A stretch of 64,000 nt of DNA from Puia sp. (lineage in GTDB: Bacteria; Bacteroidota; Bacteroidia; Chitinophagales; Chitinophagaceae): positions 101,877-165,876 of the forward strand of contig CBDCBP010000007.1 of NCBI GenBank assembly GCA_965214315.1, given 5' to 3'. Within the stretch, counting starts at the first letter, position 1; every line of letters begins with the position of its first letter. The notes beneath the pieces were generated by a model, which was not told where the DNA came from, did not search any database, and worked only from the letters and a program-made list of their open reading frames with translations. Below, piece by piece: positions 1-18,799 of this stretch. The position numbers and the translations under genes are program-made.

Positions 1-3000
1 CACCATCTTCCCAACTGGGGATCAAGCGTTCTTAATTGGGTTTCGTAAACTTCTAATCCTGATCCATCAGCGAATTCTTTGTTCTGCAATTCCGAACCTT
101 TGTTATACCGATACTTATTCTCTGCATATTGCGTCTTGATGGCTTTGTCCGAAATTCCTGCCATCGTCAGTCCGAATGGATAATAATGGTTTTCCTCTAT
201 CAACGGACTATTGTAGTGTAGAATACTAAGATTATCAAAGAACACGGGCCACCCCTTTGAGATATTGCTCAGGTAAATATACAAATATCCGCTCTTTAGA
301 ACGGTGATTGTTTGCCCAAGCGGCGACTGAAGGCCGGTGCCGTTTGGTCCGGCAGTCTTTACCTGTAGGGCGCCGTTTTGGAGCGATCCAGTCACGGGGT
401 TGAACTGATTGTCCAGCGATACCCAATTGAGATAAGCTTGCGGCCTGGAGGTCAGCGAACCGGTATCGTTGGAGGTTACCGATGTCAGGGCGGCCTGAAT
501 AGCGCTTGAACTCGGTCCGCTGAGTATCGTCGTGCCTTCCGAGGCAATCGGCGACAGTGTCGCCAGGCCCGAAACCAGCGAACTCACCAGATTTTGGGCC
601 GTCAAAGGCGAGGTGGGAGTGGACGGTATGGGGTTGTAGTAATAATACGTCCCCATCGTGATCCTGTCTCCTGCCATGACCTTGAGAATAATCGCCGGTC
701 CCATTTTCGGCCCGTTGCCATCGAGTTTAATGACGCTATCGTTTATCACCGGGCCATTGGGTGGCGCCGGGAACCCGCCCGAAATGCCAGTGACCGAAGC
801 CGCCGCGTAGCTAACGGAATCGACATTGTAGAAAAGGGCGTTTTCCGTGGCCCGGTATTGCGGTTCCATGGTGCACATGTACTGTGCCGTATCTTTTTCT
901 TGGCTCAGCATGACGCGCTCATCACCCAAGTGATCTTTCTCTGCAAAATCATATTCATAGCCATAGGCAGTATCGCCGGCCAGGTGTTTATGGTACGCCC
1001 AACGCGCCCTGCCTTCTTCGGTACCGACAAACTGAAGGCTGTCCAGTCCGTTCAACCCTATGTAAGGTGCCACTTTTTGCACATATTGCAACCCGCCCAA
1101 ATAAAGCGTGGTCGTCCATTGATAAGTAGGTGTATAAGTGGTGACCTGTTTCCAAATTTTATTGCCTGTCGCATCATATGCATAAGTAACAATCCCAGAG
1201 ACCCCCTTTGCTACCAAGACTGGCAAATTCATGTAATTGTAAAGAATCCCAGTTAACCCCTTATTGGCATCGAGTGTGAGATTTCCGTTCCCGTCGTAGG
1301 CATAGTCTGTACTTCCCTTCGTTGACAGCTTGTAATGAAAATCTCCCAATGTAGAGGCGGAATCGTTGGCACCGTCAGCAACGCTCAATAGCTTATTGCT
1401 ACCAACCTGATAAGTATAGGTGAGCTGGTCAATGGCACCCGTCGGGCTTCCAACTTTAAAGCCTTTTTGGGTCATGGCCATTATGTTGCCATTCGCATCG
1501 TAACTGAGGCCATTGCTCGAGAAATCCATTTTTGTCGCGCCCCAGCTTCCGCCATTAAGATTATCCGAATAGGCCGCACCCAACAATCTACTGGAATTAT
1601 CATACGTGAAGTCATATTTTCGATTGACGCCATCGCTCAAACTTTTCCAGACTGTCCCAGCAATGTTGCCGTTGTATAGGGGTGAATAGCTCGTTCCGGT
1701 CGCGACGCTGGTGAGATTGTCGTATCCCAGCTCCATGCCGAAGTAATGGTTGGTAGTACCACCGACATAGTTCTTGTTGATGCCTGTCACCCAACCACGA
1801 ATATTATAATCGTAGATCAAACTGTCGAGCGCTACACCTGTCGCCGGATCCTTGCCCAGGTTCTTTGTCCGGAGTTGACTCAATTCGTCGTACCGCATGC
1901 TGTCTATGATCTGATCAGCCGCGGCGCCATCGATGTTTTTGTAAATACTCGTCAACCGGAAGGCCGCGTCGTAATTGTTCTTCGTTAAAACCTGGTGCAC
2001 TTGACCTTGGTTCGTCGCATTCTGCTGGCCCAATAAAGACCTCAAAATCTTTCCGCTGAAATTGTATTGTGTCGTTAATGTATCTATCCCGTTGGAGTAA
2101 TTAGTGCTCCTTGTTTGTATCAGCCGGCCGCGATCGTCGTAGAAATTCTCCGTGTAAAGGAATTGGGAAGACGGCGAGGTGGTGATCACATCGCTGACCG
2201 TGCCCGTTACCATACCGCGGGTGATGGGATGCGCCGTCAGCGCCACTGCATATACTGGCCCGGTGCCGTACGAGGTGATGAAATAGTTACCATTGCTTGT
2301 CTTATTGGTGGCCATTACCGCAGGTAGACCACTCGCCGGACTAATGCCCGAGTAATCATCGTAAAATGTTTTGGTCAACAACTGATTTGTATAAGAAGCC
2401 CAATTCGGGTATTCGCCGCCGAGCATGGCTTGCGTCTCATGATATGGTTGGTTATTATAATTGGTCGGATCGGTAATGGTCCCCGTAGAATCGGGCCGAT
2501 TAAGTCCATCGTAAACACTGACAAGCCATTGCTGTTGAGCGCGCATATTTGAATCCTGTGACATGACCAACCGATTGCGCGTATCATAGACCATGTGTAC
2601 TTCGCCGGCCCCGGGAACCTTCTTGATGATCACACGTCTGCGATAATCATATTCATATCGAAAACAAAGCTCATTGGCAATGGCCTGGGAGATTGTCCAG
2701 GTTCCAGTTACATTGATCAGTTCAACTGCCCGCGGTGAGATCACAAATCGAAGATTGCGCATGTCATCGTACACATAGTAGGTGCAAAGCCATCCAACGT
2801 GTGCCGAGCCGGGGGAGGGGGCCGATTGCACTTTTTTAAGTACCGTTTGCTCATCCATATCTTTATATTCTATAACCTGGTGACCTGATTCGTCTGTGGT
2901 GACATTTTTATAAAGCATATAAGGAACGTAGATAGAAGTGCTGGATGGGATACTACCTATGCCAGGAGTAATTGTCCAAATCCTGACGCTATCCGATGCC

Positions 3001-4646
3001 GTGCTCACTTGGTATTGTTTCGTTACCCCCCTACCGGATCCATTCCAACTCAAGCCAGGCGACATGGCACTAACGACCCGATTGAGTGGCGAAGGCTCGC
3101 AATTAACCTGCCCATAATAATACTGTTCTCCCGGAAATTGACCACTATTGAAACTATATTGATCGGCTACCGCAGTATTCTTGTAATTGCCGTCATTGGT
3201 CGATGCCGCATAAGGCAGGAACTTATTTGTCTCCCGACCAAACCCGTCATATTGGATGAATGACACCATATCGTTCATCTTGGGGGTTTGCTGCATAGCG
3301 ACGGTTTGCATGGGTCTTCCGAGCCCGTCAACATACTGCGTCGTTTGTGAGACATCATAGCGATTAGTAAGTGCTGCCGCAGTGGTTGAATCGGGAACAC
3401 CAGGTTTCAATATATCCCTTGTACGTACAAAACTGATGTCCGGGGAACCTGTTACAATGGCAACGCTTGCGACATTGGAGTAGGCTGTGACCCCGTTTGA
3501 AGTAACCATCAGCCGATACCAGCTGTTGGCCGAAAGAAAACCAGGCGAATAGGAAAGGGAAGTCGCGCCACCAATGTTGGTAGGAAAGTTAATTCCATCT
3601 GTTGAACTTTGCCATTGGTAAACATACGCGTTGTTACCGCCCGTTGCCTGACTGCAATCCAATCCGCCCGGATTACCTCCGGAAGCAATATTGATCGAGG
3701 CAGGCGTAATCAGCCCGGCATTGAGCTTTGGATACACATTTACCACTGCCGAGTTGCTATACGCGGTGACCCCATTGCTCGTAACTGCGACCCGGTAATA
3801 AGTAGTTGATGTTAACATCCCGGGAATATAAGTCATGACCGCACAAGGGATATTTGACCACGTGCTATTATCTGGTGAACTTTGCCACTGATATTTATAA
3901 CTGTATGTGCCATTGGTCACACTGACGCTAGACAACGAAGCAGGTATTGTATTATAGTTTATGTTTTGCACACCCGGAGTTACACTTCCCCCATTTACGG
4001 GTAAAATCGGGTTGGGCGGATTTAAGACCACGGAGGCTACGGGAGTGTAGCCGGAATTACTACCGGTAGTTTCTGTCGAAAACCGCTTGTAATACATCGT
4101 TTGTGTGGCGCCGCTCGAGAAGGTCAGATTTTGAGCCGTTGCACCGTTCAAATTCATGAAATTGATATTGTCCGGACTTTCCTGCCATTGGTAAACGTCA
4201 TTAGGTGTAGTGCATGTACCCCCAGCAGGAGCCGAGCAATTGAGCGTGGCAGGTGTGGTGCCATAATTGATAGTCTGCGTTTGACCTGAAGTGAAACTTC
4301 CTGGGGAGAATGCAGGAGTAATCGTTGATGTCAATACTGCATAGCCGGCCGGAGAGTTGAGGGTGATCGAGCCATTTGTAGTCCAGGTAACCAGGATACC
4401 CACGCTGCCTGGTCCGCTGTGCGTGCCGCTCGTACCCCCCGTAGAAAGTGTGCCGCCAGATATTGTGTAAGAAAAATTAGCTGTACCAGAATAATATGCG
4501 TATAAAGTATACGAGTATTGCGTGCCGGCTAACACACATGTAGGGCCACCAATGCTAGCTTGTGAATACCCTTTGTTGGTTGTGGACAGTATTAACGCCA
4601 ATGTTACTGCTACGACAAGTCTGGGGATATAGATAATTTTTTGCAT
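1..4646 (-). CDS. DUF6443-domain / RHS-repeat-associated core protein (polymorphic toxin-like), partial: the C-terminus runs off the window
   Basis: I translated this by hand because it is not in the ORF track (no stop inside the window). ATG at 4646 gives [29 protein letters not shown] (Sec signal), then Ig-like YQWQxSxD repeats, then a DUF6443-like [23 protein letters not shown] segment. The RHS core reads PQAYLNW...[10 protein letters not shown]...[16 protein letters not shown]...[17 protein letters not shown]...LDPQLGRW. The ATGs at 4646 and 164 share one frame; the middle was only spot-checked for continuity. Confidence 0.9.
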
Positions 4647-4671
4647 GTCTTAAAATTATTTGTGACCGGCA

Positions 4672-7600
4672 CTAGTATTCCATTCCAGGCAGTGATTGAA
4701 AGTGATACTGAAACGTCTTGACGATGTTACCGTCTTGGTCTTTAATCCACTTTAGCCTGCCAATGCTGTCATAGAAATAATAAGTGATCCGGTTCGCTAC
4801 GTCACTCTCGCTCGTGATGCCGATCAGGGGTGAGTACGTGTAACTGACCATTTGTGCTGTTGAGGGGTAAAGTCTAACCTCATCGATGCTTCCCGTTCCT
4901 GAAACAATTACACTCCCGGTATTTTTAACCGTATGCTCAAAATAAGTCCATCCATTGATGGTCTTTCCCTGGGTTACCGCCGTGCTGCCGGTAACCGTAT
5001 ATACGCTCTCCGTTTTACTCCAATACGATACCACATAAGTGGTAGCTGTTTTCAGCCCCCCAATGCTTATATTATTGGAGGCAGACAAGCCAAATACATT
5101 GCTACCGGTTGGAGTGGTATTGTCTGCTGCCACTGCTGAGCTGTTGTACACCCATCTGCCATTCGCAGCGGTCTCAAATGAGGAAAAGGCTACATCGACG
5201 GAATCGGCATTGGTAACCTGCGCCATGAGTTCATTATAATTCTCATCCCATATGTAGCTTTTATCTCCCTGCAAAGTATGCAAGGTCCAGATCATGTTGT
5301 TAGCTGAATAGTCGCCAGACGTATAAAGCACGTAATGCGGATCGATCGCTACCGACCAAGAGGTCCCCGGGATAAGATACCAGGGAACAAATTGCGTCCT
5401 GAGGGTTAGGGGCTGAGCGGTTTCCATATTATATACTTGGAGCGGCAAGGCATTTTGATATACGTTAAAACGGCTGCTGATAACCGTAGAATCTCCGGCG
5501 ACATCCCTGTGTAAGACAGTCTGCTCAATAGGCAGATCAAGTAAATGCTGGTTAAACATCTGGTTCATCTGCGTGGCGAGGACTCCGGAGGGAGCGCCGG
5601 ACTGCGCGGCGAGCTCGGCCGACATTCTTGTATATTGAATTGTCTGTGTGCTATCTGAATTATACGATATCTCGAACATCGGCTGGTAATAGGGATTGTA
5701 TTGATAAGCGGTTTTCTTCTTTATAAAATTATTCCCGCTATACGTGGTTTCCACCACGCTATCTTTTAAGGTATGATAAGACTTGGCCGGTGATATGAAT
5801 AAATAAACCGGTCGGTTACCACCCGTCAGCGAGCCGATATTTGGTGTTAAGCAACTTCCCGAGTAGTTAAATCCGCCGGCTCTATTTTGCACTGCCCTGA
5901 TATCATAAAAACCATTCGTATAATTGGCCAGGTGATAGTAGTAGTTCACGGACTTGATGAGGTTGTTCAGGCTGTCATAATATTGCTCCTGAAAAAGTTT
6001 TCCTTCCAAATTTGCTGAAGGAGTGGGGGGTAGATCTTTATTGGCAGGATCAAGATAAGTAGAATAGGGCTGTGGATTCCCATTAACATTATAACCACTT
6101 GGATATGCTGGAGGGTCAACGTCAAATCCGAGCCCACCAGAATAATTTGACGATGGGGTAGCGAGATTAAAAGCCTTCACTAAATAGCCATTTGATTGAC
6201 CCGTTGGACTTTGCTGCGAGATCGTTATCTCCGCATATCCGATCAGTATTTCATTAAAGTTGACCGCACCAGAGGACGAATATTTAAGAATCGCTCCTCC
6301 GTTGGAGCCTCCGGTGCAAGTTGACAATTCCGCTTGATCAGTATAATATTCGATCGCGCCCATGTATTTGCCACTTGAATAGGTATAGTTAGTGGAGCCT
6401 ACCAAACTTCCTGAAACATAATTATTGATTGTTTTTACCCTCACCCCTCCGCCGATAACTGTGTATCCGGCGACCGCGTTGGATTGATGGGGCTCATATA
6501 CAAACGAGGTGCTGCCACCGGTAGGGTACACGACGCTCGTCAAGATCATGGCCTGCACTTGAATAGGGTCGCAATCCCTGCTTACGCCTAAATTGCTTGC
6601 GCTCAAATAAGTCGATGGTATGGCACTTCCCACCCCGCCGGTTCCGGAAACCGGGATCAAATGCGTAAAAGTGTAGCCGCCGCTGACATTGCCGGCGGCA
6701 TTTAAGTATCCCCAATGGTCCTGTGAATACGAATATTTGTCCGGCACGTTACTATTGTAAGTAAACCGGTAGGGCGGCTGATATGAATTGAGGTTGATAT
6801 TGACTGAATCCAGCCTAAGCCTTGTGTTTGAACAGGCCAGATAGCCAGTGGTGGTTAGTGGGGTAGGTAGGGTATACGAAAGTGTCCCCAGATAGGACGC
6901 CCAGGGATTGTAACTGCTCTGAAAATAGCTGTAATTAAAAGTCGAAGTCTTTTTAATGATCCCTGTCAATTTGTCTAGAACTGTTATTTGAGTCAGTTCT
7001 CTGCTGCCCGGACCGTAGAGGTCAGTCCGGGTGGACAATGTAAAATTCACAGCTGCATCTGAGCTCTCAACCCGGGTAAGATAATAAGGCGATTGAATAG
7101 CTACATTTTGGTTGTAGTCCGTGGATAGCACAGCCGGCGCAGGCGGGTTTGCCGTCCAGCTGACTGAGCCCTGCATGGTAAAGGCAGGAACCGAGTACCC
7201 ATAGTTAGCATAGGTAAACTGGAGATAATCCCCACTGGGATGTACGGCTTTTGTAAGCAGCCATGCCGAGGTGCTAGTTGGCGGAACCACGTTGCCATTC
7301 GGCAAAGTATTGGTGGTTGTCTCCGTCTGGTTAAAGTAGTAAGTCACCCCGAGATTGTCAATGATCGTCCATGTCGTGATATTGTTATGCGCATCAAGCG
7401 TATAGTTGATCTTAAACAGACTTTGTTCGCCGATAAACTTTATGCTACCCGAGATCTTATCGACATAATAGACCACCGACTGACCCATAAAGTTCGCCCT
7501 GAAAATATCTGGTTCTCCCGTTCCAAATTCAGTCATTTCCTCTACCGCCGCAAGATTATCATAGGTAGTATCTGAAGCGCAGGATGTCCCTGATTCGCAC

Positions 7601-7814
7601 ATTGTCGAAGGCGTCAATACAGCATTTTCACTTCCAGAACCGACCCGATTGAAAATACGTCGCATCCCACCGGCAAGATTTGTAGGACTTGATAGTCCCT
7701 GCGTCGACCCGTTAAAATCGGCACAGCCTCTAACCTCCACTGTGATCCGGCCGCCTGGATTAAGGTCCCAACCAAGCCCGACCCAAGACGCCTCTTGGTT
7801 GACTTTGATTCCCG
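4672..7814 (-). pseudogene. YD/RHS-repeat partner protein of the DUF6443 gene, 5'-truncated at the IS3 end
   Basis: The 1022-aa ORF (4672-7740) extends upstream in frame as GIKVNQEASWVGLGWDLNPGGRITVEVRG, a conserved motif near the N-terminus of this Bacteroidota family, and is cut at the IS end (7815). The C-terminus SYTYSPLIGITSESD...YYFYDSIGRLKWIKDQDGNIVK is typical of the family. The start codon and signal peptide are missing. Confidence 0.8.
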
Positions 7815-7845
7815 TGTATCGACCCCCAATAAACTGGACAGTTTT

Positions 7846-8742
7846 CTAAAGGTAGTTTAGTAGTTTTTCATTTTCAAAAGGGACCGGATTAATATTTTTG
7901 AACACGTGGTTCGGGGTTTGCCTATTTAAGGCGCCATGCCGTCTTTTTTCGTTGTACCACTCGTAGTAGCGATCGAGCACCATCTGGGCATGGTAGATCG
8001 AGTCGAACTCGTATCGGTCGATCACCTCTCGTTGGAGGTTAGAATGGAAGGCTTCTATGTAGGCGTTGTCCTCTGGTGTGCCGACGTGAGAGAACTCTTG
8101 AAGGATTCCTTTGTCTTTCAGATAAACCCGAACGGCCTGGGCAATGAACTGCGAACCGTTATCATTGCGGATGGACATGCCCTCGGCTTTGTATTCCAGC
8201 AGCATTAGCGATAGTAGCACCAGGACGTCACCTTTGCGGATATGGCTTCTCAGTTGGTAGATCAGCACTTTTCTGCTGTAGATGTCGATCACCGTCAGCA
8301 GGAGCACGTTTCTGCTGGTTCCGTGAATATGGACGTACTTGATATCCATTGCCAGGTACTGCAAGGGTCTTTCCGGCTTCAGGCTTCGGAATCGAATAAA
8401 ATTTCGTTTAAACGGCAGGGGCCGAATCCGGGCGCCGTATAGCAATCTTGCTTCTTTCATCAGCCGGTACACTTTTTTGTGATTAATGATCCATCCCAGC
8501 TCCCGGAGCTCGGCTGTCATGTTCTTGTACCCATAACAACAGAATTCCTGTCGCAGCACTTGCTCTACTTGCATAACGACGATTTTGTTTTCTATCATCT
8601 CGCCATGAACCGTAACGGTGTGGGTGCTGGGTTTTATGCCTTTACGGGCGCCAGACTGCTTGTAATAAAAGCTGCTGGGCGCCAGATCGGCCCATTCCAG
8701 CAGGCTTCGAACTGGTATACTCCGAAGCGCATAAGCCCTCAC
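7846..8742 (-). CDS. IS3-family transposase OrfB (DDE/rve integrase core)
   Basis: Motifs INHKKVYRLM, LAMDIKYV, IRNDNGSQF, PEDNAYIEAFHSNLQRE and WYNEKRRHGAL are present. It lies in the -1 frame relative to orfA. Confidence 0.95.
   Translation of the reverse strand: MRAYALRSIPVRSLLEWADLAPSSFYYKQSGARKGIKPSTHTVTVHGEMIENKIVVMQVEQVLRQEFCCYGYKNMTAELRELGWIINHKKVYRLMKEARLLYGARIRPLPFKRNFIRFRSLKPERPLQYLAMDIKYVHIHGTSRNVLLLTVIDIYSRKVLIYQLRSHIRKGDVLVLLSLMLLEYKAEGMSIRNDNGSQFIAQAVRVYLKDKGILQEFSHVGTPEDNAYIEAFHSNLQREVIDRYEFDSIYHAQMVLDRYYEWYNEKRRHGALNRQTPNHVFKNINPVPFENEKLLNYL
7847..7878 (-). promoter_or_regulatory. Outward-facing Bacteroidota sigma-A-like promoter at the IS end
   Basis: The minus strand has TTTG (7878-7875), a 20-nt spacer and TACCTTTA (7854-7847). 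The consensus is TTTG-N19-21-TAnnTTTG, so this has one mismatch. Confidence 0.5.
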
Positions 8743-9059
8743 GAGCCCTTGAGCCTCCGCTCGTAGGCCTCGTTTTTTTTTAATAGCTCCGTCTTGAACT
8801 CTAACTCCAGTGCCTGATTGCCGATGATCTTTTTAAGCCGGGCGTTCTCCTCTTGCAAGGCCTTCAGTTCCGGATCTACCTTCCGATATTGCGGCTGCAG
8901 CTTGGCTGGGCCACCCTGATTAAACTGGTTCTTCCACCGCATGAACACAGAATGGGACAAATTGTGCTTACGAAGTGTCTGAGTGACACCTTGATGATCA
9001 GCCTCTTGGATGATTTGAAGCTTTTGCTCGACAGAAAAGCTTCTGTACTTCTTTGCCAT
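8739..9059 (-). CDS. IS3-family transposase OrfA (HTH)
   Basis: MAKKYRSFSVEQKLQIIQE...RWKNQF...ELKALQEENARLKKII matches the HTH plus leucine-zipper pattern of OrfA. Confidence 0.93.
   Translation of the reverse strand: MAKKYRSFSVEQKLQIIQEADHQGVTQTLRKHNLSHSVFMRWKNQFNQGGPAKLQPQYRKVDPELKALQEENARLKKIIGNQALELEFKTELLKKNEAYERRLKGS
8773..8781 (-). other. Candidate -1 programmed frameshift site (A9 run) joining OrfA and OrfB
   Basis: TTA AAA AAA AAC lies near the end of orfA. A -1 slip reads KKKRGLRAEAQGLVRAYALR straight into OrfB without a stop. Confidence 0.75.
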
Positions 9060-9326
9060 AATACCCTAAATTTAAATGACTAAATTGATTTGATCAATTA
9101 GTCCAGTCTTTTAGGGGGTCAGTACAAGACACCTGTTTTACTATCCTCAATTAATAATAAGGCTACACAGGAATTGGCAGTAAATTCTGTTAAATGAGGG
9201 ATTTTGTTATTGAAGATTGGTAAATGGGTGACTATTTGTGCTGTGACGGTACAATTTTTCGTTTGAGCCACGAGACAGGCCAGTTCCGTGAATCTAACAA
9301 GGAAATTGGTCGCGGTGTTTAGATGA

Positions 9327-10292
9327 CTAATTTTGTTGTATATTGATTGAGTCAAATTGGAAATCCCCAATTAATTCCCAGTTGTTGGCGCGATTTGAAT
9401 GCTGTCGATATACGGGCGGATAATATTTAAATACTTTTATCTCCAAGCCGTCGCCTAGGCCGGTTCCTTTATAATCTTGAATGCAAATGAATAATTCACC
9501 AATTCCATCTCCGTCAATATCATATTGACCCACCTGAAAAAGCACATTTTCTTTAAACCGAAATTCCTCTTTGACATCGTGCCTTCTGCCAGTTTTAAAA
9601 TTAGGAAATATCCGAACTCTAGCATTTTCAAAGTGAATATAAAAAGCTATACCAATTTGTTCAAAAAACGTTCGCAATAAAATTGGAGCGACGTCTAAGC
9701 TCGCCGGATAAATCAATGGCAATTCGGCTCCATCTGAGGTTTCCTGGTATGTCCAGACAGCGGAATAGCTTAGCCCTAGTACAAATCCGTCCTGGGTAGG
9801 CACGGACGCTCTTTTAATGTAGGCCGACCGTGACTTATTTAGACCAAGTTGCCGCGTAATCAAATTGAAGGTTGCACTAATCAAGGCTTGCTCCTCGTTT
9901 TGCAAATAACTATTGTGCGCAATTAAATTGCGACACCTACTCATATCGTCCATTTTACCCAAAATCCTAGTCTGAGATGGAAATTCACTGGCAAAAAAAT
10001 CCCAATTGTGAGTTAGAATGCCACACAAATCCTTGAAATCCAAATAGTATAAAATTGAATTTCCCCGTAGAGACGCCCACTTGTGTTTCATCTCGTCTTC
10101 TTTCCTGATATCTGCATTTTTCTGACAGCTAGCGGGAATTCGAATATTTTCTCTGGAAGGATGTTCTTCAATATATAGCCGCAGCAGGTTCTCAAGGCAA
10201 TAGAGATATTGATACGCCATTGACATACTGATAGCCTTCCTTATTAAGTCCTCCGGAAGCAAAGAAAGTGAATCTTCATTTAGTAGATTCAT
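9327..10292 (-). CDS. Swt1-like HEPN ribonuclease domain fused to an uncharacterised beta-rich C-terminal domain
   Basis: AYQYLYCLENLLRLYIE, LYYLDFKDL..I..NWDFF...FP and the intact Rx4H motif RNLIAH (9915-9932) match Swt1-type HEPN. The C-terminal half contains YDIDGDGIGELF. Confidence 0.75.
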   Translation of the reverse strand: MNLLNEDSLSLLPEDLIRKAISMSMAYQYLYCLENLLRLYIEEHPSRENIRIPASCQKNADIRKEDEMKHKWASLRGNSILYYLDFKDLCGILTHNWDFFASEFPSQTRILGKMDDMSRCRNLIAHNSYLQNEEQALISATFNLITRQLGLNKSRSAYIKRASVPTQDGFVLGLSYSAVWTYQETSDGAELPLIYPASLDVAPILLRTFFEQIGIAFYIHFENARVRIFPNFKTGRRHDVKEEFRFKENVLFQVGQYDIDGDGIGELFICIQDYKGTGLGDGLEIKVFKYYPPVYRQHSNRANNWELIGDFQFDSINIQQN

Positions 10293-10337
10293 AATGAATA
10301 TTTATCGACCGAGTCAAGAGCCAGTTCACACTTAAAT

Positions 10338-11271
10338 TTAGCTTTTTAAAATACCATCCAGTACGTCCTGATCCGTTAGACCTCTGGATTGTTCGTTTTC
10401 GTGAAAATATATATTTTCTTCTTTCTTAACTATTGCCTCCCATTTATTTTGGGGAAATAAAGGTCCAACTTTAACTGTATAATTGCACAATTTCATAGGC
10501 GAATACCGGGCCCCAAAAATTAGCAGGAGGTTGAATTCATAACCAAATTGATGAAGATGATCCCTATTGAGAATAATATCAAAAGAATGATGAATGTAAT
10601 TGCCGTAGTAAATCACATCAGCAATTTGCCTCCGTATATAATCTGATCCCGTCTCAATACTTCCATTCATCTGGTTGAAGGGGATATTTACATCCAAAAT
10701 CAACCCCTGTGAGGTGATTGCTCTAAAATGAACATTCAAATCATTCTGAAATCTAGAAAGGTTTCTGAAAATTATCGAGCAGCTTAAGCGGCTATGCTTA
10801 ATAGTAGAACTTTCCTGGCGATATCCCTCAATCTTCAAGTACGCCTCCAATTTAGGGAATTTTACTTTTTTAAATAGAGCCTCTATATAGTGATGCGGCG
10901 CCGCCGCAGTTTGTCCATCCATACGCGTATGGTATATATTTTCAAATTGATGCGGCGCATATTCACTGGTAGGAACTTCCAAAAGGTACCAGTATTTGCC
11001 TTGATCTTCTAATCGGTTAAACAGTATGCCTCTAGGGCTAGGTATTATGCGATTTGCTATTTTTGATATAAATGAGTCTTTCTCATACCTCTCAGCAACA
11101 GAAGTCAATGCCCCTTGGTAGACTTTTTCTTTCGCCCCCGGCAACTTTATGCCTTCTGGTGCGCCCCATACCAACAAGCCGCCTTCAGAGTTAAGAAATC
11201 CACAGATCGCTCGAAGCACCTTTTTCTTCTTCTGCCTTTGCGCCTGTGCCTAACGAACTAGGATAAGATTT
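10338..11271 (-). pseudogene. Schlafen/AlbA_2-domain protein, N-terminally truncated with an apparent frameshift
   Basis: AICGFLNSEGGLLVWGAP...HQFENIYHTRMDGQTAAAPHHYIEALF is AlbA_2-like. The expected upstream KSY segment (KSYPSSLGTGAKAEEEK) sits in another frame at about 11221-11271. An alternative GTG start at 11219 gives 293 aa. Confidence 0.65.
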
Positions 11272-11642
11272 GTGATGTAAGTCTCGTTTTTTGTCCGTCC
11301 TTCTAATAATATTATAGATTGGTATTCTTCTTTTTGGAGAATATCAGTCTGGCTCTCGAAAAAATTGAACATATTTTCTATGGCCCCTTGATTAATCCTT
11401 ATATATTTATATCCAGGGCCAGTGGTTGCACGTGCATTTGTCGAAAAATCGGTTCTATAATAGACGTAACTCGAAGGAAATTTTAGTGCTGCTCCCTTTG
11501 TTTTTAGATGCAGATTAGCCAAATTGAATAATTCGTCATATACTTCCTGCAAACGGTCGTCACTGTAATCGTAAATTTCATCAGATTTGACAATGTTTTT
11601 GGCTACCATCTCAGCACCGTTTTCCAAATACTCGGCATTCAT
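11250..11642 (-). CDS. Hypothetical protein, probably the N-terminal fragment of a zinc-peptidase-like (U49/Lit-like) family
   Basis: This 130-aa ORF has an AT-rich start context. YVYYRTDFSTNARA...YIRINQGAIENMFNFF resembles the NA-x-A...IxIxxG segment that precedes HExxH in such proteins, but no HExxH is present and the ORF runs into AlbA_2 sequence. Confidence 0.4.
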   Translation of the reverse strand: MNAEYLENGAEMVAKNIVKSDEIYDYSDDRLQEVYDELFNLANLHLKTKGAALKFPSSYVYYRTDFSTNARATTGPGYKYIRINQGAIENMFNFFESQTDILQKEEYQSIILLEGRTKNETYITNLILVR

Positions 11643-11841
11643 AATATATAGTTTTGAGTTAATGCCAATCGATCTTATTCAGACAACTCACCACACGCTA
11701 TGGTCACTACTTTTGAGATTAGCAACCCAATTCCCACCACAAAGAGCACAACTAAAGGCAAATAAAAACACAAAAATCAACAACTTGGCACCGTGAAAAC
11801 ACCTGATTTTCAGCTTAAAACGCGCGAATTCGGCGGAGAGC

Positions 11842-13224
11842 CTACTTCCCAATACAAAACTTCGAAAAAATATAATCCAACCGCTCCTCCGAAGTAACTT
11901 CCCCCGTAATCTCCCCCAACCAATGCAAACAAACCCGAATATCCAACGACAAAAGATCCCCCGGCAATGACTCATCAAGCCCCCGCCGGATTGTCTCTAA
12001 CGCCGTCGCCACCTGCTGCAAAGCATGAAAGTGCCGCGCATTCGTAACGATCGTCCCTTCACCCGCAGCACCAGCCGAATTACCCGCCAGCACCTGGTCA
12101 ACGAGTCGCTGCCGAAGCACCTCAACACTTCGCGAATCCCGCGCCGAGATCAACAACTCTTGCGGAAACCGGGACCGCACCCAGGCCTCATCCAATCCAT
12201 CTATCTTATTGCCGACGAACAAAAACGGCTTGCCCCGGGCGACCAGTTGTTCCCGCGCAACAGCAACCGAAGCCAGCCTATCGTTCACGTCGAAAAGATA
12301 CACGATGATATCTGCCTGCTCCATTTTCTCCAAACTCTTGCCAACGCCTATTTGCTCTATCACATCGGAAGTATGTTCCCTGATCCCGGCAGTATCGATC
12401 AGCCGAAACAAAATACCGCCAATATTCAATATCTCCTCAATGGTATCCCGGGTTGTCCCGGCAATCTCTGAGACGATCGCACGCTCGTCATTCAGCAGCG
12501 TATTCAAAAGCGTGGATTTACCCGCATTAGGCTTGCCCACGATGGCTACCGATACGCCATTGCGGATCACATTCCCTAGCCGAAAAGAAGCCAACAACGC
12601 CGATGTCGTCGCAGTAGCTTCATTGATCAAAGCATGGAATTGCGTCCGATCGGCAAATTCCACATCCTCCTGGGAAAAATCAAGCTCAAGTTCGATCAGC
12701 GCGGAAAAACTCAAAAGCCTTTCCCGCAGTTCGCGCAAAGCCCGGGAAAAACCACCACGAATAGTATGAAGCGCAGTATGCGCGGAAGCAGCAGTATGCG
12801 AACCAATAAGGTCAGCCACGGCTTCAGCCTGGGCGAGGTCTAATTTGCCTTTCAAAAACGCACGCTGGGTAAACTCGCCCGCCCGCGCCAACCGGGTGCC
12901 CCGTTGAAGAAGCGCCCAGATAACACGTTCTTGCACATAAGGGCTGCCATGACAGGATATCTCGATGACGTCTTCCCCCGTATAACTGCGGGGCGCACGA
13001 AACAGAGACACGACAACTTCATCGAGTTCATCATCCCCATCCTTCAGTAATCCCACATGAAGGGTGTGACTCGCCTGAACCAAAAGATCTTTCCCCGGAA
13101 AAAGTCCACTAACAACCCCAAAAGCCAAGGGGCCGCTGACCCTGATCACGCCAATGGCGCCAATTCCCGGCGGTGTGGCAAGCGCCACGATCGTATCTTC
13201 CCACCCTGCTAATTTTCCTACCAT
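11842..13224 (-). CDS. mnmE: tRNA modification GTPase MnmE (TrmE)
   Basis: DTIVALATPPG, GEFTQRAFLKGKLDLAQAEAV, the P-loop GKPNAGKSTLLN, DTAGIR and the C-terminal FSKFCIGK are all present. Confidence 0.99.
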   Translation of the reverse strand: MVGKLAGWEDTIVALATPPGIGAIGVIRVSGPLAFGVVSGLFPGKDLLVQASHTLHVGLLKDGDDELDEVVVSLFRAPRSYTGEDVIEISCHGSPYVQERVIWALLQRGTRLARAGEFTQRAFLKGKLDLAQAEAVADLIGSHTAASAHTALHTIRGGFSRALRELRERLLSFSALIELELDFSQEDVEFADRTQFHALINEATATTSALLASFRLGNVIRNGVSVAIVGKPNAGKSTLLNTLLNDERAIVSEIAGTTRDTIEEILNIGGILFRLIDTAGIREHTSDVIEQIGVGKSLEKMEQADIIVYLFDVNDRLASVAVAREQLVARGKPFLFVGNKIDGLDEAWVRSRFPQELLISARDSRSVEVLRQRLVDQVLAGNSAGAAGEGTIVTNARHFHALQQVATALETIRRGLDESLPGDLLSLDIRVCLHWLGEITGEVTSEERLDYIFSKFCIGK

Positions 13225-13228
13225 GCCG

Positions 13229-13280
13229 CAAAGATAGGCCCCCCGGAAGCCATCTTCAAAATCGATTCACTGTAACTTTG
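13229..13280. promoter_or_regulatory. Divergent promoter pair (two -7 boxes)
   Basis: TATCTTTG on the minus strand (13236-13229) lies just before the mnmE ATG. TAACTTTG on the plus strand (13273-13280) lies before the ORF at 13297. Confidence 0.65.
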
Positions 13281-13296
13281 TCCAAAAGAAGCAAGC

Positions 13297-13605
13297 ATGG
13301 AACTGCAGCAAGCCAGGACCCAATTGACCGCCATCCGCGACAACCTGCCACCGGATTATTCGATCAGCGGCGCCCGGAAATTGATGTCGGCTTTCGAAAA
13401 TTATAAGCAGATCTCACGAGGATTAGGCCGTGACCTGGGCCGTCAAAAGCTAGGCATCCGCTCCGAATTCGACGATATCGAACAGAACATCAAATCCGCT
13501 ATAATAGGAACACCAAAGAAAGAAGCCGAATCCAGGTTCAGCCAGGCCAAAAAGCATATAACGGAGGACATCAACAAAATTATCGCAGCGGCTCTACAAG
13601 GATAG
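13297..13605 (+). CDS. Hypothetical 102-aa helical protein
   Basis: It fills the gap between mnmE and the next gene, has its own -7 box and looks amphipathic-helical. Confidence 0.7.
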   Translation: MELQQARTQLTAIRDNLPPDYSISGARKLMSAFENYKQISRGLGRDLGRQKLGIRSEFDDIEQNIKSAIIGTPKKEAESRFSQAKKHITEDINKIIAAALQG

Positions 13606-13612
13606 TCAGCAG

Positions 13613-15199
13613 CTATCTTATTAGTATCACAAGTCCTTTCCGCTCAACCAAGCGGCCTGTATAGTCAATGCCCGCGGCTACCCACACAAACGTTCCCGTT
13701 GGCAACGTATGCCCGCTCAAAGTTCCATCCCACCCGAATGAGGAATTAGTGGTAGTAAAAACCTGCTGCCCAAAACGGTCGTACACCGTAAAATACTTGA
13801 ATTGTGATATACCGATCGGAATAGCACGAAGCAGATCATTGTGTCCGTCATTGTTCGGCGTGAAGGCGTTGGGAACGAAGATATCCGTCTGCGAAGTAAA
13901 GGCCTTGATGGTCATGCTGTCTATCCCCTCGCAACCATCCGCCGCGGTGGCGGTCACGGTATAGGTGATGCTCTCATTTACGACAGCTGTTGGATCAGCG
14001 GTATTGGCATTGCTCAGTCCCGACGCCGGCGTCCAGACATATTGCGTAAAGCCGACGCCATCCACGTCGACGGCATTCAGTGGCACACGCTGCCCAACCA
14101 GTACACTTGTATCATCCCCCGCGGACACTTTTAAGGGTGGCACGACATTTACGATTACCGTTGCCGGCGACAACGACGTACAGCCATTCGCCCCGACAAC
14201 CGTCAATTGGTAGGTCACGCTGGAATGGGGGCTGACCATGATCGGATCCGGCTGTTCGGCATTACTAAGATAAGTGGAAGGCGACCATTGGTAGGTGGCG
14301 CCCCCGCTCCCCTGCAGTTCGACGGACTTCCCATAACAGGTCCCCACAGGCGACACCGCCGAGGCGACCGGCGCTGGTAGCACGGTGACGGTCACAGTAC
14401 CCGAGGCAGGACAGACACCCAGCGTGTCGGACAAATTGTAGGTAGTGGTGGAAGCAGGCGAAGCCACCGGGTCGAGGATAGTCGTATCGCTCAACCCCAT
14501 AGCGGGGGTCCAGGCAAAAATGGTAGCATTCGAGACCGGCTTCAGGTTTACGCTCGTGCCTTGGCAGATGGTCGTGTCATGGGGCATCGTTAACGAAAGA
14601 TCGATGCTCAGCGGAACGATGCCCGAGACCGAATCAATGCAATGGTAGACGTCCTGGGCGTAGACTTTATAAGGGCCGGCAGGCACACCGCTAAAAGATG
14701 GACTGCTGCCATACGCGCCACTGCCCAAAGCATAAGTAAGTGGCGGCTGGCCTCCGTAAATATAGGTAACCTGTATCGTGCCTTTACTCGCCTCGCAAAT
14801 TGAGGCAGTCGCACTGGCTGTTATCGAAGGACCCGAAGACGTATAGAGTGGAGCTGTCTTGGTTGCAGTTTGGTTCATCTGATCCGTAATGGTAAGTTGG
14901 TAGACACCTGCCGGAAGGCCAGTAAAGACCCCCGTGGAATCAGGGACGGCCCCAGTGGCCACACTAAAGATGGTGTAGATCAAAGGTAGAAAAACCGGAC
15001 CCGGACCCGTGGCAGCTGAAAAGCTAATTGCCCCATTAGCATTGCCGCAACTGCCCTGAGTGGTGTTGACATTTACTATCGCAAGATTCTGCCCATACCC
15101 GATCCCCGCGCTCAGCACTAGCAGTAGCACCACAAAATACGGCCGGATCGCTCTCAGGGACCGTTTTGATAGGATAGACGAAAAAGGGCGTTGCGACAT
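13613..15199 (-). CDS. Gliding-motility-associated C-terminal domain (T9SS type B CTD, CHU_C) protein with SprB/PKD-like repeats
   Basis: It has an N-terminal signal and repeated WTPAxGLS...PxAxP units. The C-terminus reads IFVPNAFTPNNDGHND...VYDRFGQQVF...GWDG...GTFVWV...KGLVILIR. Confidence 0.92.
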   Translation of the reverse strand: MSQRPFSSILSKRSLRAIRPYFVVLLLVLSAGIGYGQNLAIVNVNTTQGSCGNANGAISFSAATGPGPVFLPLIYTIFSVATGAVPDSTGVFTGLPAGVYQLTITDQMNQTATKTAPLYTSSGPSITASATASICEASKGTIQVTYIYGGQPPLTYALGSGAYGSSPSFSGVPAGPYKVYAQDVYHCIDSVSGIVPLSIDLSLTMPHDTTICQGTSVNLKPVSNATIFAWTPAMGLSDTTILDPVASPASTTTYNLSDTLGVCPASGTVTVTVLPAPVASAVSPVGTCYGKSVELQGSGGATYQWSPSTYLSNAEQPDPIMVSPHSSVTYQLTVVGANGCTSLSPATVIVNVVPPLKVSAGDDTSVLVGQRVPLNAVDVDGVGFTQYVWTPASGLSNANTADPTAVVNESITYTVTATAADGCEGIDSMTIKAFTSQTDIFVPNAFTPNNDGHNDLLRAIPIGISQFKYFTVYDRFGQQVFTTTNSSFGWDGTLSGHTLPTGTFVWVAAGIDYTGRLVERKGLVILIR

Positions 15200-15300
15200 G
15201 TAGGATATATCTGCGCTAAAATAGCACTAATCCCCCGTATACGCAACGCCCTTCCCCGATTCACCCATCCCCCAGGCATCCAACTCGCAGCCGCCCCACT

Positions 15301-16116
15301 CTAATCCGCAATCCTAAAGATCACCGGTTGTCGCTTATAACTCTTTACATTCCTCCCATTCTGCACCGCGGGTATCCATTTGCCACTCTTCCTGATCACC
15401 CGAACCGCCTCCTCCCGCAATCCATCTTGATCCGGCCCACTGAGCGCCTCCACATCACTCACATCCCCCTCTTTGTCGACAATAAAACGCACCATGACCG
15501 TTCCCTGAATATTGTCATTCTGAGCCGCATCGGGATACCGAAAATTCTTGTTTAGGAATCGCGCCCAGGCCGGCAAACCACCCGGATAGCTCGACTCGAT
15601 CTGAACTGTCGTATAAGGCGCATCATCCTCCTCCTTCGGCTTCTCCACCACGCCTCCTACGTTCGCCCCCAAAGGCGCAGGGGGCGGCACCACTCCATTA
15701 TCTTCCCCACCCGGAGTATTCACCGTCCCGATTTTCACCTTTTCCAGGTCATCGACAACAGGCGGCTTTTCGTCGTCAGGCGGATCCTTCACCAAAACCG
15801 GCGGCATAAAGATCTTCATCGCAACGGGCGGCGGGGCCTTCACAACAGGCGGCGGTAGCGGCGGCGCAACCGGCGGCGGATCAGGAACACTCACCAATGT
15901 CACCGAATCCGGCATCAGCGGCTTAACACCATGCGGACCCCGTCCACGCACAAACCCAAAACAAAACAACACCAACACAAACCCGCCGGTCGCCATCAAC
16001 GCTTTGCCCATTCGGTTATTATATGTCTTACGCAAAGTATACGCACCATATTCCTTATTGCGCCCATCGAACAAAATATCGAGGACATCAGCAGTCAAGA
16101 TCTTATTTGTTTCCAT
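15301..16116 (-). CDS. tonB: Energy transducer TonB (paralogue 2)
   Basis: The N-terminus is ILTADVLDILFDGRNKEYGAY, followed by a TM helix, a Pro-rich linker and a TonB_C domain (YPDAAQ...IQGTVMVRFIVDKEG...WIPAVQNGRNV). Confidence 0.93.
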   Translation of the reverse strand: METNKILTADVLDILFDGRNKEYGAYTLRKTYNNRMGKALMATGGFVLVLFCFGFVRGRGPHGVKPLMPDSVTLVSVPDPPPVAPPLPPPVVKAPPPVAMKIFMPPVLVKDPPDDEKPPVVDDLEKVKIGTVNTPGGEDNGVVPPPAPLGANVGGVVEKPKEEDDAPYTTVQIESSYPGGLPAWARFLNKNFRYPDAAQNDNIQGTVMVRFIVDKEGDVSDVEALSGPDQDGLREEAVRVIRKSGKWIPAVQNGRNVKSYKRQPVIFRIAD

Positions 16117-16348
16117 GTTAAATGTTTCCAGATAAGACGCCGATCGGGAACATTTCCATAACGCACTAGTATAAACGAAAACAGACTAGTCACCGCCTTC
16201 TTAATAAGACGCAACAATGCGGCAATTCCACAATTCAACCGATAAGAATTATGCACGTTATTTCATATTTAGAAGCAAAGGAACCGCAAATTAACGCAAA
16301 CCGAAAAAAAAGAACTACATTCATTCCAAAGAACCCCCGCCAAAACAG

Positions 16349-18739
16349 ATGCGTAAGCTTAACTTCCTCCTGCTGCTCCTGATTGCTCGACAACAAATAC
16401 ATGCACAATCCTTTTATCAGGAATACCACGAACCATTTCCCCTTGACATAAGCGCAAACGCCAACACGAACGGCAGCACAAACAGCAGCACAAACAGCAG
16501 CAAAAACGTCCGCAGCATCGCCATCTCCGCCGACGATGACATCTATATCGCCACCGAAACCGGCGTATACAGGAAACCAAAAGGATCAGCGACATGGACG
16601 GCCCTTCCCTTTAGCGATGTCGACGCCGGCCCCGCCTACGCCGTGGCAATAGCCCAAGACAGCGCGCTCTGGATAGGCAATTGGAAAGGCCTCTTTCAAT
16701 GGAAGAATGGGCAGCTCCGATCCGTAACAGGGCCTGACGGCCCCATCAGCGTACTCTGTCCGGAAGGTGAAGGCGGCTACGCGGCGGGTCCAAACGGCAT
16801 CTGGCGCTACAACGGCCAAACGGCCATCAAACAAGCCTACCCCGTCGCCCGCTCCGTTCGCTATGCCATCCCGGAGCGGGAGGGAGGACTATGGATCGCC
16901 AGCGATGTCGGCCTCTACCATGTCACCAAAGAGGGAACCAACTATTATTATAAGACCGATCTCCTGATCAGTGCCGCCCTGAAAGGGCTGGCCACCGACG
17001 CACAAGGCAACCTCTGGGCAGCCGGCCTGGGCGGCGTCAGCATAATAAATGAATACAGCAGCATACACAACAAAAATATCGGCGAAAAAAACATCGGCAA
17101 AAAAAGCACCAACATAAAAAGCATCAACATAAAAAACATCGGCATAATCGACAAAGGCAGCGCCACAACTCACCAAAACATCGCCACATTCAATCAAAAC
17201 ATAAGCATAAAAAAACAACTTCGCCCCGCAGACGGTTTACCTTCCGTCTTCGTCAACTGCGTGAAACGCTCCCCCGACAATAGTATGTGGGTAGGCACAA
17301 AAACAGGCATAGCCCGTTTCAACCCGGACGGCACCCATTCCCTTCGTTTCAGCAGAAGATGGCTGCTCGCCGATCAGGTGAACGACATCGCCTTCGACCA
17401 CGAAGGCAATGCGTGGATCGCTACCGCCGGCGGGGTCAGCGCCATAAAAAAGAAACGCATGACCCTCGCCGAAAAACAGCACTATTATTACGGCGTGTTG
17501 ATGCGCCGGCATATCCGAGAACCGTGGATCGCAGGCCAGTGCCATTTGCCTGTCGCCGGAGACACGACCCGCTGGCAACCCGAAGACGATGACAACGACG
17601 GCGAATATACCGGCAATTACCTCGCCATGGAGTCGTTTCGCTATGCTGCCACGAACGACCCCGACGCCAAAGAAAAAGCGAAAAAAGCCTTTCACTTCCT
17701 CAAACTCGAACAGGATATCACCGGTGGCGACGGCTATTTCGCCCGGACCATCGTTCCCATCCAATGGAAGGACAGCGTGCACGACAGCAACCGCACCTAC
17801 GATGCAAGACAACTTGCGGAAGAACAGGTCGATGATCCCCGGTTCAAACCGGTAAGCATCCGCTGGCATCCCTCGGCAGATGGAAAATGGCTCTGGAAAG
17901 GCGACGCTTCCAGCGACGAATGGTGCGGTCACATGATGGGCTATTTCTTTTATTACGAACTGGCAGCAGACGAAGCAGAAAGAGCACAACTCCGACAACA
18001 CGTAGCAAAACTAGTCGACCACCTCATCGCACATCGCTTCGACATGATGGACGTCGACGGTACCCATACCCGTTGGGGCGTATGGTCGCCGGAATTGTTG
18101 AACCATGATCCCGATTGGATGCCGGACCGCGCCGAAAACTCCATGGAACTCCTAGCCTTCCTCAAATTGGCCTATTATATGACCCACGATGAGCAATACC
18201 AGCAGCATTACCTCACCTTGATCCACAAAGAACACTATCTGGAAAACATGGCGGCCATTCCGGCGCAAAACCCGGCCTGGTTTATTTATTTTGACGTCAC
18301 CATGCAGGCATATCTGTATCCCATTCTCCTGCATTGCGAAAAAGACCCCAAACTAAAAGCTTTTTACGAAAATCACCTGGATGCCTTTATGGCCAGACGA
18401 AAGGCCGATCACAACCCACTCATCAATTTCCTGTATTGTTATGCGGGCAGCAAACGGATCGAGCAGCAGACCTCGCTGGATTTTCTAAAAGACACCCCAT
18501 TGGATCTGGTGGACTGGCACATCGATCACACCATACGTGAAGATGTGCAGTTGGTACGTACACCCATGCTTGACCAGATACAGGTCAGCCGGCTGCAGCC
18601 CCCGAGCACGCGGGCTACCGTGCGTTGGGACGCAAATCCCTGGGAAGCCGTCAGCGGTTCCCCGTACACTGAGAAGGAACCCGTATTCTGGCTCCTCCCC
18701 TATTGGATCGGCAGATACCTCAAAATGATCCCCCAATAA
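16349..18739 (+). CDS. Secreted protein with a Reg_prop-type beta-propeller and a C-terminal predicted (alpha/alpha) six-hairpin-like domain
   Basis: It has a signal peptide, repeated LWIG/LWIA/MWVG/AWIA blades and a C-terminal helical region with acidic motifs EDDDNDGEYTG and SSDEWCGH. There is no kinase domain. Confidence 0.75.
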   Translation: MRKLNFLLLLLIARQQIHAQSFYQEYHEPFPLDISANANTNGSTNSSTNSSKNVRSIAISADDDIYIATETGVYRKPKGSATWTALPFSDVDAGPAYAVAIAQDSALWIGNWKGLFQWKNGQLRSVTGPDGPISVLCPEGEGGYAAGPNGIWRYNGQTAIKQAYPVARSVRYAIPEREGGLWIASDVGLYHVTKEGTNYYYKTDLLISAALKGLATDAQGNLWAAGLGGVSIINEYSSIHNKNIGEKNIGKKSTNIKSINIKNIGIIDKGSATTHQNIATFNQNISIKKQLRPADGLPSVFVNCVKRSPDNSMWVGTKTGIARFNPDGTHSLRFSRRWLLADQVNDIAFDHEGNAWIATAGGVSAIKKKRMTLAEKQHYYYGVLMRRHIREPWIAGQCHLPVAGDTTRWQPEDDDNDGEYTGNYLAMESFRYAATNDPDAKEKAKKAFHFLKLEQDITGGDGYFARTIVPIQWKDSVHDSNRTYDARQLAEEQVDDPRFKPVSIRWHPSADGKWLWKGDASSDEWCGHMMGYFFYYELAADEAERAQLRQHVAKLVDHLIAHRFDMMDVDGTHTRWGVWSPELLNHDPDWMPDRAENSMELLAFLKLAYYMTHDEQYQQHYLTLIHKEHYLENMAAIPAQNPAWFIYFDVTMQAYLYPILLHCEKDPKLKAFYENHLDAFMARRKADHNPLINFLYCYAGSKRIEQQTSLDFLKDTPLDLVDWHIDHTIREDVQLVRTPMLDQIQVSRLQPPSTRATVRWDANPWEAVSGSPYTEKEPVFWLLPYWIGRYLKMIPQ
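16466..16513 (+). repeat. In-frame 12-bp tandem repeat (ACAAACAGCAGC-like, about 4 units)
   Basis: The units are acgaacggcagc, acaaacagcagc, acaaacagcagc and aaaaacgtccgc, encoding TNGSTNSSTNSSKNVR. Confidence 0.85.
17069..17158 (+). repeat. In-frame degenerate 15-bp tandem repeat (xxxAAAAACATCGGC-like, about 6 units)
   Basis: The units are aacaaaaatatcggc, gaaaaaaacatcggc, aaaaaaagcaccaac, ataaaaagcatcaac, ataaaaaacatcggc and ataatcgacaaaggc. Confidence 0.85.
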
Positions 18740-18780
18740 AAAAAGACCCTCCAACATCTATTAGACTCGGAGGGTCTTTA
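18738..18780. terminator. Bidirectional intrinsic terminator between convergent genes
   Basis: AAAGACCCTCC (18742-18752) pairs with GGAGGGTCTTT (18769-18779), with an A-tract on the left. Confidence 0.8.
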
Positions 18781-18799
18781 TCACTTTCCAAAAAATAAC

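Follow-up and report, generated by a model that had tools for sequence, protein, structure and literature searches.

Does the open reading frame (ORF) at positions 9327 to 10292 of a 64,000-nucleotide window of Puia sp. DNA (assembly GCA_965214315.1, contig CBDCBP010000007.1; the window is the whole stretch analyzed, and its own numbering is used throughout) encode a working HEPN ribonuclease (RNase) governed by a novel sensor? An original prediction, made from the letters alone, had described it as an intact-looking Swt1-type HEPN RNase fused to an unknown beta-rich domain that could gate the nuclease. By homology, the two-domain architecture, here called HEPN-X after its HEPN head and its C-terminal domain X, is genuine and recurs in 14 full-length relatives, and the window gene is a 3'-truncated remnant that has lost its last 39 codons through rearrangement. 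The reading that we favor, with somewhat better than even confidence, combines this truncation with the view that intact HEPN-X proteins are candidate single-gene defence or toxin systems in which X is a shared sensing or assembly module. The parts of the ORF are as follows.

9327..10292, minus strand: the whole ORF, a 3'-truncated HEPN-X gene of 321 aa
9831..10292, minus strand: Swt1-like HEPN domain, aa 1-154, all-helical by prediction (Pfam, PADLOC, AlphaFold2 model)
9966..9968, minus strand: codon 109, Arg in the window and Trp in all 14 relatives (alignment)
9915..9932, minus strand: Rx4H catalytic motif RNLIAH, R121-H126 (direct sequence reading)
9786..9830, minus strand: variable linker, aa 155-169, disordered by prediction (predicted local distance difference test score, pLDDT; low identity)
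9345..9785, minus strand: what remains of the beta-rich X domain, aa 170-316, matching profile positions 4-158 of 196
9495..9521, minus strand: DIDGDGIGE loop, D258-E266, an integrin/FG-GAP-like DxDxDGxxE hairpin
9327..9344, minus strand: five non-homologous codons (NIQQN) and a stop, made by the breakpoint at 9344/9345

A homologue search covering 5.8 billion proteins returned 14 full-length HEPN-X relatives with 43-71% identity and lengths of 347-356 aa, one of them being represented by a 319-aa fragment. The named relatives, including Niastella populi A4R26_05790 and Sphingobacteriales bacterium 50-39 BGO55_24005, belong to the Bacteroidota, and a set of 185,579 species representatives includes only four named genomes with the full architecture; a further set of proteins of about 284 aa has only the HEPN part in common. 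The start codon of the window ORF, an ATG at 10292, is backed by relatives that align from residue 1, and the protein tracks them through ...GDFxFDSI before it diverges and ends in FQFDSINIQQN*. The relatives run on for another 39 residues, forming a conserved tail (GEPKAY..PRNLRGFYYEWT..F..TG) that is absent from the window protein. Searching the window by tblastn with two of the relatives, P0002 and P0003, gave a match over 10292-9345 only, corresponding to residues 1-316, and the blastn DNA homology to the two closest loci likewise ends at 9345/9346. When the lost tail was sought across the 64-kb window by tblastn with four C-terminal peptides, only chance matches were obtained. The suspicion of the original prediction that the C-terminus had been shortened is therefore confirmed by the length comparison.

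The extent of the loss can be read from the X profile, of which 38 of the 196 positions are gone, a truncation that the original prediction had itself named as counting against an intact gene. A complete X domain follows the profile up to about position 190, position 185 or beyond is reached by 108 of 114 near-complete X family members, and a median of 2 residues separates the domain end from the protein C-terminus; no other X family member stops where the window copy does. In the AlphaFold model of P0002 the lost segment corresponds to the last four beta strands (residues 322-351), and the lost tail contains the near-invariant R333, F349 and G353. Mean pairwise identity among the intact relatives is 51% in the tail, 44% in the rest of X, 55% in the HEPN domain and 10% in the linker, so that conservation of the tail is on a par with that of the remainder of X. 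Across the 316 retained residues, the sole deviation at positions conserved at ≥90% is W109R, the Trp being invariant in the other 14 sequences. Because a conserved fifth of X is lost and W109 is replaced, the window copy is, judged from these alignments, most likely non-functional, and the description of the RNase as intact-looking has to be given up.

The HEPN assignment of the N-terminal part is better than chance by profile comparison. Pfam HEPN_Swt1 (PF18731) matches residues 28-136 of the window protein at E=4.2e-5 with 24.3 bits, slightly below the family's gathering cut-off of 27.5 bits, and is matched by 11 of the 15 HEPN-X family members at E<=1e-3 (best 2e-8), with P0033 scoring 37.7 bits. 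The PADLOC profile PDC-M34B (PDLC04592) matches residues 7-143 at E=3.8e-27, and the relatives at 1e-29 to 1e-39. Similarity to the Csm6 HEPN profiles of Pfam and PADLOC is weak (E=0.024-0.031), and NCBIfam yielded no match for the window protein. Residues R121, N122, A125, H126, N127 and S128 are invariant in all 15 aligned sequences; together with the PF18731 and PDC-M34B matches, this upholds the Swt1-type head and the intact Rx4H motif of the original prediction. In the AlphaFold2 model of P0002 (pLDDT 85.5, predicted TM-score (pTM) 0.82), residues 1-154 form helices only and the linker falls below a pLDDT of 50 at residues 158-165. No HEPN structure was among the top Foldseek matches of this model, and a PDB sequence search was also empty. 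HEPN-X carries neither a signal peptide nor a transmembrane segment.

The C-terminal part could be linked to no known partner domain: the 15 X sequences had no Pfam match even at E<=10, and searches against NCBIfam and PDB (sequence and profile) gave nothing beyond chance level, the calcineurin-B EF loops in the PDB profile search reaching E=0.7-0.9. By these comparisons X is a previously unannotated beta-rich domain of about 190 aa, as unknown as it had been called. An AlphaFold model of X alone (pLDDT 89, pTM 0.88) contains 14 strands and one short helix, and on this model X is an independently folding C-terminal domain. Three Foldseek searches with these models, covering PDB and the viral-structure library BFVD, gave best E values of 0.055 and 0.12 against PDB and 0.011 against BFVD, with TM-scores of at most 0.35. 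The weak matches were propeller blades or partial propellers, namely SMP30, DDB1, the clathrin terminal domain, RSL, Pizza and integrin alphaM.

Within X, a loop of the form D-x-D/N-x-D-G-x-x-E lies between two predicted strands; it is contained in residues 257-268 of the window protein (YDIDGDGIGELF), and its DIDGDGIGE sequence is invariant in the 15 HEPN-X proteins. Among 126 members of the X family, 123 have D at position 1 and 122 have E at position 9, and D/N stands at position 3 in 117 and at position 5 in 124. We take the loop to be the integrin/FG-GAP type of Ca2+ hairpin (DxDxDG motif). The prediction of a beta-rich C-terminal domain with a calcium-type loop after the linker (YDIDGDGIGE, DxDxDGxxE between strands) is borne out, and of its "FG-GAP/EF-like" label the FG-GAP part suits the hairpin. 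The loop resembles the FG-GAP/integrin-alpha hairpin (DxDxDGxxD) in its position between strands and is kept in about 95% of the 126 members, whereas X has one loop per domain in place of tandem repeats and no propeller-level structural match. An FG-GAP/VCBS propeller was rejected on the single loop, the empty Pfam search at E<=10 and propeller matches with TM-scores of at most 0.35 at E of at least 0.01; in P0164, a true FG-GAP protein, the X profile matched at the loop only, four times. An EF-hand was also rejected, since strands flank the loop, the acidic ligand stands at position 9 and a hydrophobic residue at position 7, whereas the canonical EF-hand is a helix-loop-helix with a 12-residue loop, Ile at position 8 and Glu at position 12.

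Searching for the C-terminal domain alone, as the original prediction had proposed, disclosed a family much broader than HEPN-X. An exhaustive profile search over 1.84 billion representatives (E<=1e-3) collected 157 representative clusters, all of whose proteins are nameless or "hypothetical protein" in the source databases; a word-index profile search added HEPN-X members only, and no X relatives were found in IMG/VR viral contigs. X always occupies the extreme C-terminus. Among the 114 near-complete members, classified by a hydropathy heuristic, 59 combine a signal peptide or lipoprotein box with X, another 17 add an extra domain to a signal peptide and X, 10 are anchored by a transmembrane segment (including Ser/Thr kinase, TIR and Zn-ribbon heads, each followed by a transmembrane segment and X), 13 consist of X alone and 15 join a cytoplasmic head to X. 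About three quarters are by prediction secreted, lipoproteins or membrane-anchored, in agreement with the earlier remark that such loops are typical of secreted proteins.

The Pfam partners of X comprise TIR_2 (five times), EAD11, HEPN_Swt1 and Zn-ribbon (four times each), Pkinase and SMEK_N, with sporadic fusions to SnoaL/DUF4440, LprI, PG_binding and PliI-like domains, and an HNH-X protein with 44% identity in X is encoded in a Bacteroidia metagenome-assembled genome (locus L010, 7188-8612). Several X-linked heads match PADLOC profiles of defence effectors known from experiments, including ZorE HNH (1e-6), the restriction endonuclease (REase) head of a short Argonaute system (3e-51, in SMEK-X) and the SpbK TIR (3e-25). 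TIR-X adjoins AbiEi/AbiEii, and SMEK-X adjoins a large caspase-like protein. From these predicted fusions, X is a portable module found behind several killer heads and in the sensor position of membrane receptors.

How the window copy lost its end can be followed on the DNA, where two features lie beyond the breakpoint.

9127..9344, no strand: 218-bp low-GC (guanine-cytosine) filler replacing the 3' end of the gene, unique in the window
7815..9126, minus strand: IS3-family element (orfA 8739-9059, orfB 7846-8742)

The filler has no match elsewhere in the window or in 64 fetched loci. One minus-strand frame through it is free of stops, giving an 83-aa ORF (9119-9370) that has no Pfam match. The insertion sequence (IS) encodes HTH_Tnp_1 (orfA) and rve (orfB) products between inverted repeats TGTATCGACCCCC and TGTACTGACCCCC. 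Logan contigs from three runs of two samples of the same organism show that it is multicopy in the source genome, with 3-15x contig depth, several different flanks, and loose ends of other copies exactly at 7815 and 9127. Contigs from all three runs cross the 9344/9345 junction, spanning 8763-11400 and 9273-9441 without differences, and all show the truncated form alone; with independent contigs in agreement, misassembly does not explain the junction. A look for runs labelled as RNA found none. The original prediction had placed the end of the ORF about 200 bp from the IS: the stop codon does lie 200 bp from the IS3 end, but the IS is not at the breakpoint, and 218 bp of unrelated DNA separate the two. 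The element, which ends at 9126, was accordingly rejected as the direct cause of the truncation.

No target-site duplication flanks the IS3 element (CCG at one end, AGA at the other), which suggests an IS-mediated rearrangement. On its other side, the frame of a 1022-aa ORF without Pfam match (4672-7830, minus strand) is open up to and into the left IS end, and this ORF appears, from its frame, to be 5'-truncated by the element. Since the HEPN-X breakpoint lies 218 bp from the IS, the IS has no duplication and a 5'-truncated ORF stands on the other side, at least two rearrangements have happened around the element and the breakpoint. Farther along, a minus-strand ORF of at least 1549 aa (3-4649) runs off the window end and combines a signal peptide, DUF6443 (E=3.8e-39) and an RHS-like C-terminal region.

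On the upstream side of the HEPN-X gene, three features lead to the edge of a variable island.

10338..11219, minus strand: AlbA_2/Schlafen-like upstream neighbor, 5'-truncated (relatives 346-350 aa)
11250..11642, minus strand: 130-aa orphan ORF without family match
11842..13224, minus strand: mnmE (trmE), a conserved gene that marks the border of the variable island both here and in relatives

GC content is 37-41% over 9000-11800, as against 52-58% for mnmE and beyond. An AlbA_2 relative, P0211 (75% identity), aligns with the window gene only from its own residue 52. An in-frame stop at 11250-11252 divides the AlbA_2 fragment from the unrelated orphan ORF, and the DNA homology of the fragment to a syntenic relative, L064, stops at 11272, slightly past that stop. 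Directly downstream of mnmE, the window, the P0003 and P0002 loci and L064 all have a variable island; L064 does not contain the HEPN-X gene. Cargo differs from island to island, comprising HTH_17, AHJR-like, RusA, OLD-type AAA_15-TOPRIM and RadC genes in one case, ParA-like and AbiEii genes in another, and an intact AlbA_2 gene with IS66 in a third. Other HEPN-X genes belong to a conjugative element (TraM, DUF4138) or to an integrase island that also encodes an HNH protein, and across relatives the neighbors include OLD/TOPRIM, AbiEii, RusA, integrase, integrative and conjugative element (ICE) genes and Peptidase_C14. No conserved partner gene emerged: the window neighbors have no homologues in the 59 related loci first compared, and contexts differ between relatives. 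As cargo and neighbors vary, homologous neighbors are lacking and the AlbA_2 gene is also truncated, HEPN-X genes are carried singly by variable islands and mobile elements, and the island in the window is decaying.

Some further observations concern these islands. In locus L057 (7050-9304), a 214-aa unknown gene begins 3 bp after a HEPN-X gene and the gene of a 534-aa HNH protein comes next, an arrangement that was unseen in other loci and could be a lineage-specific operon. About 120 bp downstream of mnmE (11701-11820) match L064 twice (2642-3099 and 4438-4556), one match being syntenic and the second, at 76% identity, 1.3 kb further on; the two copies may represent an att-like repeat that delimits modules of the island at the mnmE hot spot. 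The gene beyond mnmE (13613-15199, minus strand) specifies a protein that has the CHU_C type IX secretion signal together with immunoglobulin-like and PKD domains. The CHU_C-mnmE synteny is also present in L064 and marks the genome of the window as one of Chitinophagaceae-like Bacteroidota. No RNA genes were found by Rfam and ARAGORN over window positions 1-20000.

Comparison with known systems places the head more firmly than the whole. At the family level, and by profile similarity, it belongs to the Swt1-like/Abi2 HEPN clade (PF18731; PMC3710099), with which it has in common an N-terminal domain that is all-helical by prediction, the Rx4H motif (RNxxAH) and the 11 of 15 profile matches given above. 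Passages of that 2013 census describe bacterial members of the Swt1/Abi2 clade as catalytically active and tied to defence and abortive infection, and list fusions to AAA+, REase, winged helix-turn-helix and transmembrane domains (PMC3710099); its main text contains neither "propeller" nor "beta-strand". The match to PDC-M34 protein B, strong as it is, is limited to HEPN, at profile positions 42-184 of 192, and the typical PDC-M34B-like proteins recovered in this analysis are 228-298 aa long, carry HEPN at the C-terminus and have no X. Partner protein A is missing from the window, the two upstream neighbors having no PADLOC match at E<=1 and the downstream side consisting of filler and IS, and no PADLOC-recognized partner stands beside the HEPN-X relatives in L016 and L022. 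Membership of the window gene in a PDC-M34 system was rejected on the missing partner gene, despite the protein B match; our literature search found no paper mentioning PDC-M34.

The HEPN-MNT toxin-antitoxin systems are recognized by an adjoining minimal nucleotidyltransferase (MNT) gene, and the neighbors of the window ORF are instead the AlbA_2 fragment and the orphan ORF; the MNT domain is likewise absent from the precomputed Pfam labels of genes in the homologous loci. CARF-HEPN proteins of the Csm6/Csx1 type also combine a HEPN RNase with a separate domain, ligand-binding in CARF-HEPN and a candidate for this in X, but the order is reversed in HEPN-X (HEPN N-terminal), X is all-beta by prediction and not Rossmann-like, and there is no CRISPR context. 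A closer parallel in design is offered by the effector-APAZ partners of short prokaryotic Argonautes, which likewise carry interchangeable N-terminal TIR, SMEK or HNH heads on a shared non-catalytic domain (PMC10810196). X is unrelated to APAZ, however, HEPN is an extra head, X also occurs as a secreted stand-alone domain, and no Argonaute gene was seen in the examined loci. We found no paper on the X domain or the HEPN-X architecture and no relevant one combining FG-GAP with HEPN; two Aravind-lab papers on conflict systems mention neither EAD11 nor SMEK nor FG-GAP in their main text.

HEPN RNases cut RNA through a composite site formed by two Rx4-6H motifs at a dimer interface, and their control therefore lies in assembly or in a change of conformation. 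Under our favored reading, an intact HEPN-X protein would be a single-gene defence system or abortive-infection-type toxin, in which X would bind a trigger ligand, possibly in a Ca2+-dependent manner, and/or drive self-association. Either event would let the HEPN heads assemble the composite Rx4H active site, which HEPN RNases require in dimeric form. The window copy would be a remnant of such a gene in a decaying low-GC island beside mnmE, near a truncated gene and an IS3 element. A sensor role of X in gating the RNase is consistent, by analogy, with its HNH, SMEK, TIR, EAD11 and kinase-transmembrane fusions. As X is not hypervariable, a small or conserved ligand fits better than a fast-evolving phage protein.

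Several points weigh against this reading. Ca2+ binding by X is predicted from the motif alone, and the defence role is argued by analogy, as guilt by association. The same lack of hypervariability counts against direct recognition of fast-evolving phage proteins, and one EAD11-X gene is set among housekeeping genes. With some three quarters of X members predicted to be extracytoplasmic, the primary role of the domain may be unrelated to immunity, as in envelope or ligand binding. Finally, the retained 316 residues are undecayed apart from W109R, which points either to a recent truncation or to selection on the shortened protein.

It is this last point that gives some room to the view that the short protein still works, either as a deregulated or differently regulated RNase or as a HEPN head that functions without a complete X. 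Its frame is open across 316 homologous residues, the catalytic and invariant positions are all kept except W109, and the junction is fixed in two samples; yet four predicted core strands with their near-invariant residues are gone, the missing part is kept by 108 of 114 family members, the endpoint is unique to the window copy, and the AlbA_2 neighbor is truncated too, in a setting of IS-associated rearrangement without target duplication. We regard a functional short form as quite unlikely. A chimeric assembly or a sequencing artefact as the source of the ORF, which its abrupt end near a multicopy IS, a classic site of misassembly, could suggest, is in our estimate extremely improbable, given the three-run contigs that span the region and the repetition of the two-domain architecture in 14 unrelated assemblies.

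Two further alternatives concern the family and not the window copy. X might be no sensor but an envelope or ligand-binding module, or a pure oligomerization module serving localization or assembly, or HEPN-X might be a delivered toxin. Export or membrane attachment is predicted for most X proteins from a signal peptide, a lipoprotein box or an anchor, LprI, PG_binding and PliI-like fusions occur sporadically, and the weak structural matches include partial propellers that are completed by oligomerization (RSL, Pizza). HEPN-X itself, on the other hand, has no signal peptide or transmembrane segment, the kinase and TIR receptors place X at the sensor position, and delivery is disfavored by the N-terminal place of the toxin domain and by the lack of a trafficking domain and of a conserved adjoining immunity gene, which leaves this alternative unlikely. 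That HEPN-X is an RNA-processing enzyme with a housekeeping or regulatory role in Chitinophagaceae-like Bacteroidota, outside conflict systems, would accord with the moderate conservation of X and with the occurrence of Swt1-type HEPN domains in RNA surveillance as well (Anantharaman et al. 2013, PMC3710099). We consider it very unlikely, in view of the patchy distribution over four named genomes, the location in low-GC variable islands, an ICE and integrase-bearing islands, and the dispensability of the gene, which is truncated here and absent from L064.

For annotation, the practical consequence is that the locus should be recorded not as an intact nuclease but as a HEPN-domain pseudogene, truncated and lying beside mnmE in a degraded island with IS scars. 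HEPN, TIR, HNH and SMEK heads are proven suicide effectors of bacterial immunity, and the systems that use them differ in the triggering module. The arrangement of an effector with a sensor-like module is itself already known; what is new is the sensor-like module, a single unannotated domain behind four such heads, behind the EAD11 adaptor and at the sensor position of membrane kinases. A bolder version, to which we give only tentative credence and hold to be rather doubtful, is that X is a new-fold Ca2+-loop sensor or assembly domain of envelope origin that was recruited as the cytoplasmic trigger of HEPN-X, HNH-X, SMEK-X, TIR-X and EAD11-X. If this were true, these effectors would form an undescribed one-gene abortive-infection family, perhaps answering an envelope-derived ligand or the entry of Ca2+ during phage attack. 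X is a concrete, testable candidate, both as a trigger module of a new kind and as the basis of several one-gene defence systems that would themselves be new.

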